From NCBI GenBank assembly GCA_031835245.2, contig JAVKOQ020000018.1, positions 62,001 to 126,000 of the forward strand: a stretch of DNA of 64,000 nucleotides, in the 5' to 3' direction. Source of the stretch: Balamuthia mandrillaris. Its lineage: Eukaryota. Numbering within the stretch: position 1 is the stretch's first letter; each line of letters begins with the position of its first letter. Shown piece after piece: positions 54,803 to 64,000 of the stretch. Below the pieces are notes generated by a model, which saw only the letters and a program-made list of their open reading frames with translations, was not told where the DNA came from and did not search any database. The position numbers and the translations under genes are program-made.

Positions 54803-56997
54803 TCAAATGCAGTTCCACACCAATCGCCAAGGAGAAGGACCCAACAACCCTCGATCGGTTTGCCAGCCGGCCAACTGCCACCCTCGCTTGAGCTTGGCGA
54901 ACTCCTCTTTCCACTTTTGAAGGGAAGCACCGACGCTCTCCGCCTCCAAAAAGGGCTTTCTGTCTTTATGCGCCTCGAGGTGCTGCACCGTTTTCCACAA
55001 GCAGTAAGCAAGACAGTAGCCCGCAAGCATGTCTTCCGGCTGTGTCTCCTCATGAAGAACGATGTAGATCCGTTCTACAGTTGTGTCATCATCCACCAAG
55101 CTCTTCCAACGCATTTCCTCATCGTCGTCACCAACTAGCATCACTGCTTCTTCTTTCCGCTTCTTCACGGAAACAAGCAACAAATACTTTTCATCATTCG
55201 AGCGTCGACTAAAGTGATGAAAGAGTTGCTGATTGTGGGCGCTGCTGTTCTTGTTGAGCACAACACTCAACCTTGCTCCTAACTCGACCCTTCGCCCAAA
55301 GTCCCACCACAAAACTCTTTCTTTGCTGCTCACTTCTTCCGGTGTTAAAAATGGCGACTTCTTGTTCTTCTTCACTTCGTCATTCTTTTGTTGTTGATGA
55401 AGCAACCAATGATCGAGAGCGAGATGCAATCGCTGTCGGTTAAATGTATCCATCGTGATGCCACGAACACAACGGTAGTTGGCCCACAGGTGTAACGCTG
55501 TGAGAATGATGAAAAGCAGCCATATGCGTGCTCTCTGTTGCGCAGCGGAGAAGGAAGAATCGTTGAGAAAGGAGGTAACGGCGAGACCTAAAAGCATCCC
55601 AATGAGATTGGCGGCTGTTTCTTGGCTGCCGTCTTTGGCAGAGACATCTGTTGTGTTCGTGGTATTAAGGTTACGATGTAGATAAAAGCAGAGAACAAAA
55701 GAAAAAGCGCCTAAGGGTCAGAAAATGGCGGAGAAAGAGCGTACCAGCCATATTATTGTTACGGGCTTGGTGGACGGTAATGGCAGCTCGTGTAGCTCCT
55801 CCAGCTACTCCCACGATCGCTTTTAACACACTCCTAAAGAAACGCGTTGAGCAGGTTGTCAAAGACCGTCCAATAGCCAAATAAAAGGAAGGAGAAACAG
55901 CGTACCCAGCGCAAGCAAGAAGAACGAAATACTCAGGAAACATTGGCGATAACAGTTCCATTGTCATTGCCAAGTCTGTTACGTTGCGATGAAGAAGAAA
56001 AAGCAAACGATAGATAAGAATAGAACGCAAAGAACGTTACGACGATAACACCAAGAAAGAAAGAAAGAAAGAAAAAAGGCAAAAGACCATTTAAAATGTC
56101 GGCCATAAACCGCCAAGTCTTGGCGTTGCTATCGAGCTCTGGTCCTTGCAGCCATGCAAAGGCTATTCTGCCTACCATGCCCGTCCCGTCTCTTATTACC
56201 CTTTGTGTTTTCATAAAGGAAAGGAGAAGAAGAAGAAGAAGAAGAAGAAGAAGAAGAAGAAGAAGAAGAAGAAGAAGAAGAAGAAGAAGAAGAAGAAGAA
56301 CAAGAACAAGAAGAACAAGAAGAACAAGAACGGAGAGCGAAGAATTATAAGAATAAGAATGAAGAAAGAAGAACAAGAAGCAAGAAAGAAGAAGAGGAAG
56401 AAGAGAAAGAAGAAATAAGAAAATAAAAACAAACCATTGAACGACGGCAGCAGCAGGGGTGGCGGTGGCCCTGCCCACGCCAACCCCCTCCAAGATGGCA
56501 TGCGTGCACAGCAGCCCCGTCACGGAGCTGCAGAGGGCCTGCAACGTGTCCCACAGCTGGTAGCGGAGGTAGTCCGACGAGACGCTCCTGGGGTAGCCCT
56601 CGGGGAGGAAGACGGCGCGGAGGTAAAAGATGAGAACGTAGAGGGGACGCGCCAGCAGCAGCGGCAGCAGGGTCCGTCGGTTCGTGCGCCAAGGTTGCTG
56701 TGGGTGTTGTGGTTGCGGCTGGTTGCAGGCAGTGGAGCCATCCGAGCGAAGGGTGTAGCGCTTGGAGGTGAGATGAGAGGAAGAGGAGGAGGAGGGGGAC
56801 GAGCCGACCAACCGCTCTTCGATGGCGATCATGGCATAACGATCGGGGGAGGGAAGGCATGCTGGTGGTGAAGTTCGTTGTTGTGGCACTCGGTTGGAAA
56901 TGTTACCACCACTGTCCTTGAGATCCCTCCTCTCCGCGTTGCCTCCGTTGTTTTTGCGGCTCCTCCTTTGCGGTGGTGGCTGGCTTCGTCCCTTCAT
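54803..56997 (-). CDS. RUSF1: RUS1/DUF647 family protein (multi-exon)
   Basis: FLPEGYPRSVSSDYLRYQLWDTLQ, DSNAKTWRFMADILND, GATRAAITVHQARNNNMAD, AKDGSQET, HLWANYR...FNRQRL; start codon uncertain. Confidence 0.9.
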
Positions 56998-57238: not shown

Positions 57239-57569
57239 TTATTTTGGAGTCACCTTGGCGAAGAGGGCAGCGAACTGCGATGGGGATGCTGCGCCGGAGA
57301 GGGTGTGCCTGCCGTTGTGAGAAGCAGAACGAAGGAGCAAGCAAGCATGCAAGAAGAACACGAAGACATCAGGGAGCAAGCAAGAAAAATGCAGTGGCGG
57401 CAAACGCACTTATCGTTGATGATGAACAGCGGAACGCCAGTGCATCGCTTGGCTGCTTGCTGCTTTTCCTGCCGTATTACCGCCTCCGCTCCTTCCTCAC
57501 CGCTCAGGTAGGCCGCCACCTGTTTGGCCCTCTCTGTTAGCTCTCGAAGAGAGGAAGAGGCAGAGAGAG

Positions 57570-57604
<35 letters not shown>

Positions 57605-58259
57605 AAGAGAGAGACATCATCGGTCATTCCAACTGCTTTAGCAGCAGCACTGAGCACCTCAATGGCGCCAATGTCCTCCCCTTCCAGCCAGTACTTGCTG
57701 AACAGCACCTCCGCCAAGGGGTCCTGTTTGTCCCGGAGGCCTGCCAGGTGCAACAACCGATGGGCACGAAACGTGTTTGGCATCTTATCGCAGAGCTTCA
57801 GCTCCATCCCTTCGGCCCTGACTGCAAGGAGAATGAACAAACAGAACAGCTGCTCAACAGGAAGAAGAAGAAGAAAGAAAGAAGAACAAGAGGCAAGAAG
57901 AAGAACAGGGCACGCACAGTGCGGCTCAAAGTGACGAGTAACGCGCTCACGGGTGGAGCCCAACCATTCCTGGCAGAAGGGACCCATGTCCACAACTTCC
58001 GGCGGCAGCGAGGGCCGCAGCTCAAACGGAAGCCACCGCACCCTAAACTCCACCTCCCCCGACTCCCGAACGGCCGCCAAGGCCTTCTCCATCCGCCTCT
58101 TCCCTATGAAGCACCACCTCTTCACAAGCTCAGAGAGAGCATAAAACAAAAGCGATATGAAAGAAGCACGTACGGACAAACAGGGTCTGAGAGGATATCG
58201 ATGGTTATTACCACGTTGGGTGCCGCGGCAGCAGAAGAAGAAGAAGAAGAGCCTTCCAT
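57239..58259 (-). CDS. DsbA/FrnE-family oxidoreductase (multi-exon)
   Basis: DILSDPVCP|WCFIGKRR (CPWC across a splice), WLPFELRP, NTFRAHRL, GVPLFIIN. Confidence 0.85.
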
Positions 58260-58370
58260 GATGCGTGGTTGTTCTCACGAGAACTCTCTCCTCTGGCTTG
58301 GTTCACGCGTTAATAACGACTCGGTCCTTTTCGCTGATTTGCGTTACAGTAACAAAGAAGAAAGAAAGAG

Positions 58371-60267
58371 ATGGAGGGAAGAGAACAGCAACAAAGAGAC
58401 AGGTTTCGTGGCTGTTTGTTGGGCTTAGCTGCGGGAGATGCGTTGGGCACCACTTTGGAGTTCTTGAAAGCCGACCCGGATCACCCTCTCACAGACATGG
58501 TTTTTTTTTTTCCCTCTCTTCTTTGCTTCAACCTGATCAGACGTCTGATATGTTGATGGGTGAACGTAAACTGAAACAAAGGTTGGCGGGGGGAAGTACG
58601 CGTTGATGGCTGGACAATGGACGGACGACACTTCCATGGCCCTCTGCCTGGCCGAAAGTTTGATCGAGTGCCGGGGGACGTTTGACCCTTGCGACCAACT
58701 TCGCCGCTACTGTCAATGGTTTCTTTCTCTCTCCTCTATGCTTGTGCTTCTCTTTCTCTCTTTTCTCCTTTACTTTCACCTCTCTTCACCGCTCTCATGC
58801 TCTTTTTATGTTCTCCTTCTTGTGTTACTCCTCTCTCTCTCTTCTATACTTGTCTTGGTGTTGCTCTATGCTTCTCTTTCTCTCCTTCTCTTTAACTTGC
58901 GCTTTCTCTCTCTCTCTCTCTCTCACTTGTCTCGCAAACAAAAGGTACAGGGAAGGTCACCTCAGCAGCAACGGCGAATGCTTCGACATTGGCATAACCA
59001 CCCGCATGAGCATGTTCGAGTTCGAGAAGACCGGCAACCCTTATCCTGCCTCCACGGGAGACAAGGCTCGTGCGGGCAACGGCTCGCTCATGCGTCTTTG
59101 TCCTGTCCCTCTCCTCCTCTTCTTTCTTGCTTCTTCTCCCTCCAACCAGGAAGAACAACGAATGAGGCTGTTGAAGACGGCGGAAGACTCCTCCAGGACG
59201 ACGCACGGAGCGCAAGCCTGTCTGGATGCATGCCGCTTCTATGCAGCTTTGTTGGTGGGAGCGTTACAACCCAACATCACCAAAGAGGAGCTCCTTTCCC
59301 CTTCCTTCTTCTCCTCTTTTCTCTCTTCTTCCACCGAAACAGCCGAGCAAGCGGAACGAAGCAAGTGGTTGACTCTTGTGCCAGAAGTGGAGGAAGTGGC
59401 AAACGGTTCCTACAAGCACAAGGAACCTCCGGAGGAGATCACTGGCAAAGGCTATGTCGTCTCCTCCCTGGAGGCCGCTCTTTGGGCCTTCCACAAGAGC
59501 AACAGCTTCGAGGAAGGAGCCTTGTTGGTGGCCAACCTGGGGGATGATGCCGACACCACCACCGCCATCTACGGCCAGGTGGCCGGGGCGTTCTATGGCG
59601 CGGAGGCCATTCCGGAGGGGTGGAGGAGGAAGCTGGCGTTGGCTCCGTTGATCGAGGCTTTTGCGGATGAGCTTTACTCGCTGTCCCAACAGCTGCGCGA
59701 CGGAGGTTCGTGTCGTGCGCTTCCTTCCTTCTGTCTTCATCTCACTTGTTGTTGCTGTTTGTCTCAGGAGAAGTGGTTCTGTCGGAGAACTACCGGGCCG
59801 CACAAACGTGCTACCAGCTGTTGGAGAAAGGATGGCAACCCATCCAACGTCGCCTCACGCCCGGTCCGCGCATGTACACCAGCGTCACCTCCTTTTTGAA
59901 CGACGAGAGCCAGCTCAAGCAACATTACTTTGAGGCGCTCGCTTCCTCCTCATCGTCCCCTTTCGGAGATGCTCTTTGGCAGGACTTTGAGCATCGTTTT
60001 CGTTATGTGGAACAACAACTTCGAAACAGAACCGGAGAGGTGGTGAAGAAAGAGGAAGCGGAGCCTTCAACCGCTTCTTCTTTTCTTCCTCCCCCTCCTC
60101 CTGCTCCGCTTGCGCCTCCTCCGCTTCCGTTGATGAAGGATGGCGAGAAAGAAAAGGAAGAAGGGCGAGGACAGCTGCTGAGCGCTATCCAGGCGTTCAG
60201 CAAAGCCGGTCTCAGCAAAACGGAAACAAAAGATAAAAGCGGACTCATTCTTCCTGAAGACAATTAA
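58371..60267 (+). CDS. ADP-ribosylglycohydrolase (DraG/Tri1/ARH family) with C-terminal poly-Pro and WH2 motif
   Basis: [64 protein letters not shown]; in-frame splice 59706-59767 to tail ending PPPPPAP...[25 protein letters not shown]. Confidence 0.88.
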
Positions 60268-60749: not shown

Positions 60750-61898
60750 TTAAATAACGAAAGGAACAAGGATCCTTCGGTTGCGGGGGTAGTCACGGAA
60801 CTCCCTGAGGTAGGCCTTGTGCTTGCCTACAGCCCACACCCACATCTGACCAGCTCCCACCAAAGTGAAGAACACCGCTAATAAAGAGAACGAGAAATGA
60901 AAAAACAGGAGAGAAAAAGAAAAGGAGATTAAGAGAAAGGAGTAGGACACAAAAGAAACAATGAATAAACTGCACAATAATAAGCAAAAGAAAAGCATAC
61001 CAGCAAGCGTTTGAGTCATGATGCTGAAGGAGATCCATGCGGCAATCTCACAGGTGTAATTGGGGCAAGAGACAAACTCGAAGAGGAAGCCACGTGGGAT
61101 AGCCCTCACTCTTGTGCCTGGTGGCCTCAAGTTGCGGAGGATTATGTGGCAGTACAAGTTACCTAACTCAAACAACTAAAGGTAGGATAAACGAAAGATC
61201 AGAAGATTCGGTTTAAACAAAATAAAAAATAAGCACACCATGCGATAAACATGACAAATAAAACAAAACATTACAAATACAAACACAAACACAAACACAA
61301 ACAGCAAAGGCAAGGCAAACGTAAAACACAAGGAAGAGAACGGATTCACGTACAACGAAGCAAGCGAGGCCAGCATAAAACTGAGTGGAAGAGGGAGGAG
61401 TGTAGAGAGGGTGGTTCACAAAGTAGCCGACCAAGGCACCAGCACCCCAATAATAACCGCTGTTCTTGAAGATGTTGAGCAGCGGCATTGTGCCCTTGCT
61501 GAAGCGATGCACAAAGATGGTCTCCAACTCACGTTTCAGGTAGTGACCGACCCAACAAGCACATGCCACTCTTTAAAGGAAAAGGAATAATACCAGGATA
61601 AGAATATGTAAAAGAACGAAGAAGATGAAGAAAAGAACAAGAAGAACAACGAAGAAGGCAAGCAGAAGCAGAAAAAGAAAGAACATAGAATAAACAAAGG
61701 AAAAAACAGTACTGGGCTTCAAAGGTCATGGGGGTAGAGGCCAGGTCGCCATAAACGAACCAAGGGCGCAAGTAGAAGAACAAGTAGATGAGCAACGGGC
61801 CGGCGTACTCCACCATGAACACCTTTTTTTTGTTTTTGGGAGGAGAAAACACATAGAAGCGTTACCATTATGTTTTACGAAACTAAGAAGAGACAGAA

Positions 61899-61958
<60 letters not shown>

Positions 61959-62522
61959 CGGACGTACAGTGGACCAACCGACTTGAGGACCCAAATCCTT
62001 GAAAACGATAGTGTTCGGTTTTTTGCCGGTGCAAAGGCCGTAGTGAGACAACGTCTTGTCATTGTCCAAGGAAACAGGGCGAGTCCCTTTTATTTAATCA
62101 AAAAGCATGATTAATCCAAGAGCGCTTTAGAGGAGGACGAATACAGTGAAGAGAAATAACAGAGAAGAAAGGAGCAAAGCAAGAAGAGAAGGAAAAAGAA
62201 AAAAAAAACGGGGAGCTGGGCAAAAAACCTTGTTCAGCGGGAAGGGTCAACCTCTGCCTAGCGGGATACTTGCCAGGAACTGTTTTTGCAAAAAGGAAGA
62301 AGTGATATTTGTATCATAAAAAATATCCAATCCATCGAAAATCAAAAAAATAATGGGGCCGCTGCTTGCTTGAAACGATTTTTTAAAAATAAAATATTAA
62401 AAGGGATACGAACGTAGTTTGGCCAAACGCTCCTTTACAGCGAGGACAGTGTCGTTGCCAGACACATCAATCACCTTCAAGGTCTTTCCGCGCTGATTCA
62501 CCACCGTCAGTTGTTCGGTCAT
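60750..62522 (-). CDS. TECR: Very-long-chain enoyl-CoA reductase (TSC13/TECR), multi-exon
   Basis: [65 protein letters not shown]. Confidence 0.93.
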
Positions 62523-62622
62523 CGTTGCTGCTCCCGCTACTTTTTTCCTCGGCACAAATAAACACCGGCAGGTCGACATGAGCAAACATCAGCTGCAGAC
62601 GTCAGCCGGCTTGAACTGTCCG

Positions 62623-62630
62623 TGTCGACA
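62623..62630. promoter_or_regulatory. TGTCGACA palindromic promoter motif (representative of 7 exact copies)
   Basis: Exact copies at 944, 18529, 24713, 26172, 26215, 50314, 62623, all in short intergenic regions upstream of start codons. Confidence 0.65.
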
Positions 62631-62699
62631 TTAAACGATCTACTAGGGAACCAATCTACCAATAATTTTCAAACCACCAATCAAAAATCAAAGTTTTTG

Positions 62700-63000
62700 C
62701 CGTAACTTGCCTTATAAAGGTTACTCATTTAACCCGGTCAAACTTTTCAAATATTTTTCAGTTAATCCAAAACTATCGATGAAAATATCTTTGCTGACCA
62801 CTGCTCCTAAGGCGGCGCCAAGATCAAGCCGATCCATGGGACAACGAAAATAAAGCAAAATTAGTAAAAGGAAAACAAAAAACAGAGAAACAAAAAATAA
62901 CCCACCTCCGGCGTGCCTAATCACGGCTTGTCTTACGACTCGCTATAAGCAACGGTGCCGGCACCAAAGCAACCTTACCGCCTACCGCCCCCTCACAGAG
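62700..63000 (-). ncRNA. Candidate Fanzor omegaRNA scaffold
   Basis: Directly 3' of and overlapping the Fanzor stop; nested complementary pairs 62978-62983/62810-62815 and 62924-62930/62825-62831, plus small hairpins including GUC-GUAA-GAC; boundaries are inferred. Confidence 0.5.
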
Positions 63001-64000
63001 GAGGAGGAGGAGGTGGTAAGTGCTTGCAACGTAAAAAAGCGGATCAAGATGTTTCGGGCGGCGTTGGCATCTCGATCCGCCTGGTAGCCACACTCGGGTT
63101 GAGGGCACCGAAAGGTCTTGTTTCCCCCCAACTGGTGGTGGACTTGGCCGCACTTGCCGCAGGTCTTGCACTTGCCGCAGGTCTTGGAGGTGTATTCCTC
63201 ATCGCAGAGGCAGACCGTACAGGACGGAAATTGCTGGGCCTTGTTGAGGAGCCTCTGCCTGAAGCGATAGTGGGACCAGGTCAGCATGGCTCTGGCCGTT
63301 CGCGAGCCAATGCGGCGGTGGCCTCGCCGCACCATCTGCTGGCTCCTGAACTCTGGCAGAAGGATGAGGGAGAAGTTCCTGACCAACCAAAACACGAGCT
63401 TCTTGTGGAGGTCATCCACCAGGTTGCGGATCCTCTGGCGAAGCCGAGCAGCGGCCCTTCGGAGACGGCGCCGTTGCCTGTGGTTGCCCTTGGTGCCCTT
63501 ACTCTGCATGCGATCCAGGCGGTGGCACAGCTTGCCTATCTCGTTGATGTCCGCTTTGCCCCACTCGGTGACCTCCCCGCAGCCGTTGTAGGTGGTCATG
63601 AATGTGCGCACTCCTGGATCCAAGGCGATGATGCCTGCCTCTCTCCTTCGGTGCTCACGGGCTTGGCTCTCACCCATGAGCTTCAAAGGCTGAGGCACAC
63701 AGAGGTAGTAATGGCCCAGTCGAGTGTCTTTCACCAGACGAACGGCATAGAGCACCTCCGACGGAACTTTGTAGTTCTTGTCCCTCGCTTTGATTCGCGC
63801 CTCCCCGAAGAAGAGTTGGCGGATGGACTTGCTGTGGTTCCACTCCCTGGCTTGGATGCTGAGAGACTGGCTCTTGTCCTTCCGACCACGGAACTTCATC
63901 TTGAATCCAGTCCTGCCCGCCGCCAAGCTGGTTTTCACGCCGTTGAAGAAATCATCGACAGCGTCACTGCGAATGTATCGAGGAGTTTCCAACACCCACG
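62982..64000 (-). CDS. Fanzor2 / IS607-TnpB-family RNA-guided endonuclease (5'-truncated by window edge)
   Basis: ETPRYIRSDAVDDF...FKMKFRGRK; RuvC-I IALDPGVRTF; bridge helix RLRQRIRNLVDDLHKK; LILLPEF; WSHYRFRQRL; DEEYTSKTCGKC...FRCPQPECG zinc finger; RuvC-III DRDANAARNI; frame open to the window end. Confidence 0.93.
   Translation of the reverse strand, partial: WVLETPRYIRSDAVDDFFNGVKTSLAAGRTGFKMKFRGRKDKSQSLSIQAREWNHSKSIRQLFFGEARIKARDKNYKVPSEVLYAVRLVKDTRLGHYYLCVPQPLKLMGESQAREHRRREAGIIALDPGVRTFMTTYNGCGEVTEWGKADINEIGKLCHRLDRMQSKGTKGNHRQRRRLRRAAARLRQRIRNLVDDLHKKLVFWLVRNFSLILLPEFRSQQMVRRGHRRIGSRTARAMLTWSHYRFRQRLLNKAQQFPSCTVCLCDEEYTSKTCGKCKTCGKCGQVHHQLGGNKTFRCPQPECGYQADRDANAARNILIRFFTLQALTTSSSSSVRGR

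Follow-up and report, generated by a model that had tools for sequence, protein, structure and literature searches.

Near one end of a 64,000-nucleotide stretch of Balamuthia mandrillaris DNA (the whole of which we call the window), we find part of a mobile element that encodes a Fanzor2 protein. Our preferred reading, to which we assign a probability of roughly 60%, is that this is a multi-copy, IS607-derived element whose family likely encodes an RNA-guided homing nuclease, while the window copy itself is probably impaired by a duplication. Three points, namely an 18-bp duplication, a 175-bp extension of the element past the nuclease stop codon, and the presence of many copies, go beyond an earlier account made from the letters of the DNA and its reading frames (hereafter the sequence-only reading). 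Fanzors have been proven to cut both in vitro and in human cells (PMC13565253), and the coexistence of empty and filled alleles in an amoeba with a diploid-like genome makes Fanzor homing testable from sequence alone.

The Fanzor2 frame lies on the minus strand and is unbroken from 63998 to its stop codon at 62984-62982, being open at the window edge. This 3' part of the gene (62982-64000; 338 codons plus stop) covers the end of REC, WED, RuvC, and the zinc finger, while the 5' part (~220-250 codons, by sister gene models) lies beyond the window. The sequence-only reading had claimed an uninterrupted frame of more than 337 amino acids with a set of named motifs (DPG, the Pro of LILLPEF, the Glu of DEEYTSKTC, DRDANAARNI, ETP, and FKMKFR), and all of these are located as it described. 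ETP stands at residue 4 and FKMKFR at residue 32 of the window frame, and the RuvC-I DPG (63612-63620, minus strand; residues 127-129) contributes catalytic D127. Pro215 of LILLPEF (63354-63356, minus strand) occupies the canonical RuvC-II Glu position, a feature also given in PMC10530073, and the shifted catalytic Glu267 of DEEYTSKTC (63198-63200, minus strand) sits six residues ahead of the first CxxC. The zinc ribbon (63090-63179, minus strand; placed by profile and translation) comprises a doubled CxxC and CPQPEC, the latter a four-residue second knuckle that is family-wide and is also present in P0240 and P0243, and the RuvC-III DRD (63069-63077, minus strand) carries catalytic D310 within DRDANAARNI (residues 308-317). 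D127, P128, G129, P215, E267, and R309 are invariant across an alignment of 120 sequences (the window protein and 119 homologues). Fanzors and pro-Fanzors are described as having a DPG, a Pro or Gly in place of the former RuvC-II Glu, and a Glu that lies six residues ahead of the zinc finger (10.1101/2023.08.09.552727; PMC10530073; PMC11832414).

A profile search of the window protein gave 103.2 bits against NCBIfam guided_TnpB (cut-off 100; E 1.8e-29), with both Pfam PF07282 and PF01385 above their cut-offs. Its AlphaFold model has a mean pLDDT of 87.5, and the top solved structure is that of the mimivirus Fanzor2 (9B0L) both by sequence (E 1.3e-19) and by fold (E 5.4e-12), the fold search ranking 9b0l first and SpuFz1 28th or lower. 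The Fanzor2 motif of Bao and Jurka, given in PMC3627910 as D-x(125,275)-[TS][TS]xx-C4 zinc finger-x(5,50)-RD, is found in the window protein as D127, T270-S271, C274 to C303, and R309-D310. The search pattern of Yoon et al., which asks for 12-18 residues between two CxxC, matches 112 of 120 homologues and fails on the window protein because of its duplication and its CxxxxC second knuckle; that pattern is a filter rather than a definition, and we read the failure as a lesion of this copy plus a quirk of its family, not as exclusion from Fanzor2. Taken together, the window protein is almost certainly a Fanzor2.

Phylogenetically, a FastTree of 168 rows (317 initially, 302 with the RuvC-III motif, 199 after removal of near-copies, then thinned; Fanzor1 rows absent) split a side with DPG and the shifted Glu from 16 canonical TnpB rows (support 100*), with the window protein on the former side; P0002, which is frameshifted, was excluded from alignment A1. 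The window protein belongs to a group of 49 rows (support 93), most of them metagenomic proteins, which adjoins cyanobacterial pro-Fanzors within a 76-row group (99*); most viral-contig rows, and the giant-virus rows, lie elsewhere in the tree. A single-protein scan of viral contigs returned no relative, whereas an alignment-based scan did find relatives. The profile search and phylogeny that the sequence-only reading had proposed thus bear out its assignment to a Fanzor2 of the IS607/pro-Fanzor lineage; the nearest relatives are metagenomic IS607 elements and cyanobacterial pro-Fanzors, not giant-virus rows.

Judging from the flank and the sister gene models, this Fanzor2 is encoded in the genome of a eukaryote. 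A neighboring exon (58946-59701) matches a B. mandrillaris protein at 100% identity, and among named proteins the closest relative of the window frame is a "Transposase" from B. mandrillaris. Contamination, with bacterial or viral DNA joined to an amoeba contig, is extremely improbable; the sequence-only reading had named bacterial contamination as one case that could refute it. Contamination would accord with an intronless nuclease gene whose nearest relatives are metagenomic (one, P0114, labelled a bacterial MAG protein), and the X1 contig that crosses the junction reaches just 25 bases into the element, below the 31-base rule applied; however, this 329-base contig spans the junction without a mismatch, 16 sister models lie on 15 contigs, the element is present in all four read runs aligned to 62000-64000 (from four studies), its GC content is 58.6% versus 57.6% in one host exon, and the nearest named prokaryotic relatives are just 35-41% identical over full length.

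We placed the right end of the element at 62807, where its minus strand ends in TTAG (62807-62810), because of a depth step at 62804-62870 in runs X1, X4, and X7 and because 17 contigs (7 + 6 + 4 from three runs) depart from the window sequence just before this base; the element hence extends 175 bp beyond the nuclease stop. Depth in X7 peaks at the right end (6481 versus 330-2064 elsewhere in the element), a contig depth that was not counted as evidence. Across the stop codon, a hairpin (62966-63024, minus strand) forms the predicted first stem of an omegaRNA (-31.5 kcal/mol, z -4.6, 0 of 200 shuffles as low; its limits were picked after viewing the larger fold), and the predicted scaffold of ~220 nt would run to the right end (62807-63027, minus strand, boundaries inferred), including a U-rich stretch that differs in length among copies. 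As a whole, 62807-63024 folds modestly (z -1.5, 12 of 200 shuffles), and the fold evidence backs the first hairpin only, because the 180 nt after the stop (z +0.6) and the 139-nt end (z -0.1) are unremarkable when folded alone. Set beside a pseudoknotted omegaRNA, the single sequence folded here gives one strong hairpin and a modest overall fold; no Rfam family matched the predicted scaffold, and its size would fit that of the ApmFz2 scaffold (205 nt; PMC11832414). The adjoining host flank (62787-62806, minus strand) is the putative guide, which may begin one base later. The right-end motif had no match in JGI metagenomes, and the window holds no second copy. Separately, at 62835, in the predicted stem region of the omegaRNA, the window carries a minority base (the other base accounts for 7906 of 10,994 depth in X1 and 9 of 9 reads in X22). 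Joints and loose ends also occur near 62807-62930 (62875 back to 62807 in X7, and a second right-end-like start behind 62857 in X22), which suggests that other genomic sites hold derivatives of the right end, either tandem or short and non-autonomous.

Flank-only contig alignment revealed three empty alleles at the insertion site, one each in X4 and X11 and one as a minor contig in X1. All three contigs depart from the window sequence at 62790; the X4 allele, after an insertion of 8 bases, returns to the flank as far as 62807 and from there carries other sequence in place of the element, while the minor X1 and X11 contigs continue into the same six bases as X4, all three reading AAACGG on the minus strand up to 62807. 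X1 holds both states (depth 35.9 for the filled allele and 7.4 for the empty one), X4 and X11 gave the empty allele only, and X13 gave no contig on the flank and is uninformative. The insertion is hence polymorphic, and heterozygous or mixed in X1. In the region 62484-62790, X1 also shows two haplotypes ~10% apart at a depth of ~5:1, versus 1:1 for a simple diploid, which could reflect aneuploidy, mixed culture, a paralogue, or gene conversion.

These alleles further offer a view of what the nuclease might read. The last two bases at the junction are AG in the element and GG in the empty allele, and with a guide start at either 62806 or 62805 the empty site still has GG as its last bases, the filled site having A for the first G; since the contigs depart at 62807 and not at 62806, only one of the two Gs is fixed by the data. 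From this one site, we predict a target-adjacent motif (TAM) that is G-rich and ends in GG. IS607 recombinases insert at GG (PMC6188088), IS607 nucleases read TGGG, GGG, or NGGG TAMs (10.1101/2023.08.09.552727; PMC10530073; 10.1101/2023.11.20.567912), and Fanzor2 TAMs are described as short and G-rich (PMC13565253). IS607 insertions have a GG core, no target duplication, and no terminal inverted repeats; here, for the right junction, there is GG in the empty allele and AG at the element end. A conserved stretch likewise ends in AG in six cyanobacterial-type related loci (239 examined), the next base being G in four and C in two. In a comparison by eye, 19 of the 20 bases of the predicted guide agree with the X4 empty allele, whereas gaps of 3 and 7 bases interrupt the predicted target in the minor X1 empty allele, and 5 further bases are missing from X11; these gaps may be old haplotype differences, because X11 has them without a filled allele.

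The homing mechanism that we propose draws on work with IS607 TnpB and Fanzor2 proteins. A read-through transcript across the right end would yield the ~220-nt omegaRNA, with its last 17-20 nt supplied by host flank. The protein would read the short GG-ending motif, which is found in the empty alleles (ACGG, minus strand) and not in the filled one (TTAG), such that empty alleles would be cut and the element's own copy spared. Repair from the filled homologue would then copy the element in and retain it. The Balamuthia genome is described as diploid-like and rich in transposon fragments (10.1101/2025.02.25.640156), and such a genome would supply homologues for this copying-in repair. Movement to new sites would likely depend on an IS607 serine recombinase, acting in trans or since lost, and the omegaRNA of the window copy could still serve a sound sister protein.

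A bolder version holds that a transposase-less Fanzor2 family with a new C2H2 finger has behaved as a natural gene drive, spreading from one homologous chromosome to the other, and has been caught in the act at this locus, which we consider a long shot. The ~5:1 excess of filled over empty alleles in X1 speaks for it, as does the surviving X1 empty allele, whose missing target bases resemble those of an escape allele, and the X4 empty allele, which still matches the guide where no filled allele is seen. Yet X11 shares the short haplotype without a filled allele, the indels may run in either direction, and this is one locus. If true, it would be field evidence of Fanzor homing in a eukaryote; restorative homing has been shown only for bacterial TnpB and IscB, according to a 2026 review (PMC13565253).

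How the element was mobilized bears on a second alternative, in which a eukaryotic cut-and-paste transposon, one that has inverted repeats and makes target duplications, took over the nuclease (the Fanzor2* class), and mobility no longer follows IS607 chemistry; this would be compatible with nuclease activity. Within the 49-row group, an IS607 TnpA lies upstream in four of the seven loci with upstream DNA (L001, L080, L082, and L085; that of L080 is truncated, scoring 104.8 where the cut-off is 110), and tnpA in relatives of this kind overlaps with the beginning of the nuclease frame. Neither the window nor 12 sister models gave a TnpA or resolvase signal. The Balamuthia models retain the PFWN and GSGWF blocks, and in place of the stretch that overlaps tnpA in relatives they have, ahead of these blocks, a C2H2-like finger and basic patches. 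The finger matches zf-C2H2_4 at E 1.9e-4, which is under the curated cut-off and comes from gene models beyond the window, and atlas matches for the family N-terminus, all <0.9, are a lead only. None of 141 relatives whose N-termini are long, and none of 142 representatives, has the C2H2-like pattern (the two sets may overlap). In P0241 and P0002, the C2H2-like finger and basic patches fall in residues 3-25, and a low-complexity E/K tract separates them from the HTH. On the gene models, the Balamuthia family may have lost TnpA and acquired a C2H2 finger. The capture reading gains from this swap and from the missing TnpA, as well as from the high copy number and the precedent of Fanzor2* in molluscs and Chloropicon (10.1101/2023.08.09.552727). 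Against it, the terminal TTAG is absent from the empty alleles, so there is no TTAN-type target duplication at this site, and the GG of the empty site and the AG end match cyanobacterial-type IS607 ends; we regard such capture as rather improbable, and keep to an IS607-derived element.

For the window copy itself, the principal doubt comes from an exact in-frame 18-bp tandem duplication (63150-63185, minus strand) that reads KTCGKC twice and starts four residues after E267. It is found in 0 of 120 homologues, 0 of 133 further motif-bearing relatives (142 examined), and 0 of 12 sister gene models tested, and reads without it make up 138.6 of 145.2 depth in X4, 553 of 553 in X7, and 10 of 15 reads in X22; X1, which gave no contig with an 18-base gap, is uninformative here, its repeat contigs probably being too short. 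The window copy further carries a private F203, where S makes up ~99% of family depth. The lowest inner pLDDT of the AlphaFold model is at residues 272-274, a dip that we set aside as a sign of damage, as it is expected for columns with one sequence. With the duplication beside the catalytic Glu, this copy is probably impaired, and, because the duplication is absent from homologues, it is doubtful that its protein would be active as it stands. The "apparently intact" catalytic site of the sequence-only reading accordingly stands for the residues and falls short on their spacing, and "potentially active" is weaker for this copy than was claimed. By virtue of the duplication, the window copy is also a poor tool candidate.

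The opposite case, that the window copy is itself a working nuclease whose first CxxC binds zinc while six extra residues loop out of the ribbon, strikes us as unlikely. The duplication may simply loop out, given that Glu and Cys are normally spaced if the first CxxC is the one used. The window copy has its three catalytic residues and both knuckles in one frame, as none of the 12 sister models tested does; the structure model is confident overall, and the polymorphic insertion is probably young. However, it would require a knuckle spacer of 20 residues (counted from the first CxxC) versus 14 in 110 of 117 homologues (range 9-16), two extra cysteines would compete for zinc, F203 is private, and the 5' part beyond the window may be broken, like many sister models.

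At the level of the family, gene models comprise 16 sisters on 15 contigs that differ in length, 11 of the models being named B. mandrillaris. Twelve tested sister models are 74-99% identical to the window protein over the best aligned stretch, and none of them combines DPG, the shifted Glu, both knuckles, and DRD in one frame; the remaining four are, by eye, fragments. Some of these breaks may be assembly errors, though frameshifts at 63124 and 63575 carry about one-fifth of X1 depth, and the family, judged by its models, may now be mostly dead. Single X4 contigs have a depth of 139-148 inside the element versus 6-13 in the flank, a ratio that fits tens of copies, summed contig depth not being a copy number. 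Ten of 17 common in-frame variants listed are synonymous versus 23% expected (p = 0.0015), which hints at purifying selection on the family, with the caveat that the 17 are the best-supported in-frame rows of a table with 73 more, that three are linked, and that this is not a dN/dS estimate. RNA reads of X22 cover the element at about the level of the TECR exons (see below) and, at positions private to the window copy, carry the family allele (19 of 21, 9 of 10, and 13 of 13 reads), so they show transcription of the family only. Overall, the family was very probably active in this lineage at some time.

Among known systems, the mimivirus ApmFz2/ApmFNuc (PDB 9B0L; PMC10530073, PMC11832414) resembles the window protein in its DPG, its shifted Glu six residues before the zinc finger, and its RD, and its long right-end omegaRNA and GGG TAM are like the predicted scaffold and the G-rich motif of the Balamuthia empty alleles; it differs in being viral, 22% identical (structural alignment), situated beside an IS607 TnpA, and free of the doubled CxxC. 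Cyanobacterial pro-Fanzor IS607 TnpBs (10.1101/2023.08.09.552727) share the rearranged active site, the AG end, and an adjoining tree group, and include the nearest named prokaryotic relatives (35-41% identical), but are prokaryotic and have an overlapping tnpA that is not seen in the Balamuthia models. Fanzor2 is already known from amoebal nuclear genomes, which we liken to this one by description: Acanthamoeba castellanii, a free-living amoeba, has ACa-1 and ACa-2, which unlike the Balamuthia models carry a serine recombinase (PMC3627910), and NlovFz2 of Naegleria lovaniensis is active, a proven RNA-guided nuclease (PMC10432273). The Fanzor2* elements of molluscs and Chloropicon primus are likewise multi-copy, eukaryotic, and without TnpA (10.1101/2023.08.09.552727), but are defined by inverted repeats and target duplications, whereas no TTAN duplication is seen at the insertion site described here. 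CboIStron and ISXfa1 (10.1101/2023.11.20.567912; 10.1101/2023.08.09.552727) serve as models of mechanism, with GG-core insertion, a G-rich TAM at the empty site, and cutting of the empty joint to retain the element, and differ in being bacterial, with scaffolds that end in CGG and, for ISXfa1, a canonical active site. The literature searched, including supplements of PMC10530073, PMC10432273, and PMC10711439, holds no mention of a Fanzor, TnpB, or IS607 element in Balamuthia and no relevant report of a Fanzor with a C2H2 finger; Repbase, subscription papers, and bioRxiv supplements (e.g., of a 2026 Balamuthia genome preprint) lie outside that search and may list the family. Within this scope, the family adds an unreported lineage near the cyanobacterial pro-Fanzors, with a predicted GG-ending TAM and an unusual N-terminus.

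Finally, the neighbor of the element is a TECR-like gene (very-long-chain enoyl-CoA reductase; 60753-62522, minus strand; PF02544, and a weak PF00240 at its ubiquitin-like start), as the sequence-only reading had held in placing the insertion upstream of TECR. The gene is spliced, with joints at 62085-62228 and 62279-62414 in RNA reads, and X7, tentatively listed as DNA, is probably RNA because it shows spliced TECR joints without intron cover. The element's right end and the TECR start codon are 284 bp apart, a gap that contains three CCAAT motifs (62651-62681), a possible TECR promoter that the insertion would leave uninterrupted. It is very improbable that the insertion is a domesticated regulator of TECR: it does lie close upstream and reads toward the gene, but it is missing from three alleles, among them the sole allele of X4 and that of X11, X7 and X22 show spliced expression of TECR, and intergenic gaps in Balamuthia average ~664 bp (10.1101/2025.02.25.640156), so most insertions fall near a gene.

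Farther along, a spliced ADP-ribosylglycohydrolase gene (58370-60267, plus strand) has a C-terminal polyproline and WH2 (PF02205) tail. Its best matches besides B. mandrillaris are ~50-58% identical, and the few named ones are bacterial, on account of which the gene may have been acquired from bacteria and joined to an actin-binding tail. Two further spliced genes lie on the minus strand, one at 57250-58300 that resembles a DsbA/FrnE-type oxidoreductase in motifs such as AHRL and GVPLFII, and one at 55900-56900 that resembles the RUS1/DUF647 type (FLPEGYP, YLRYQLWD).
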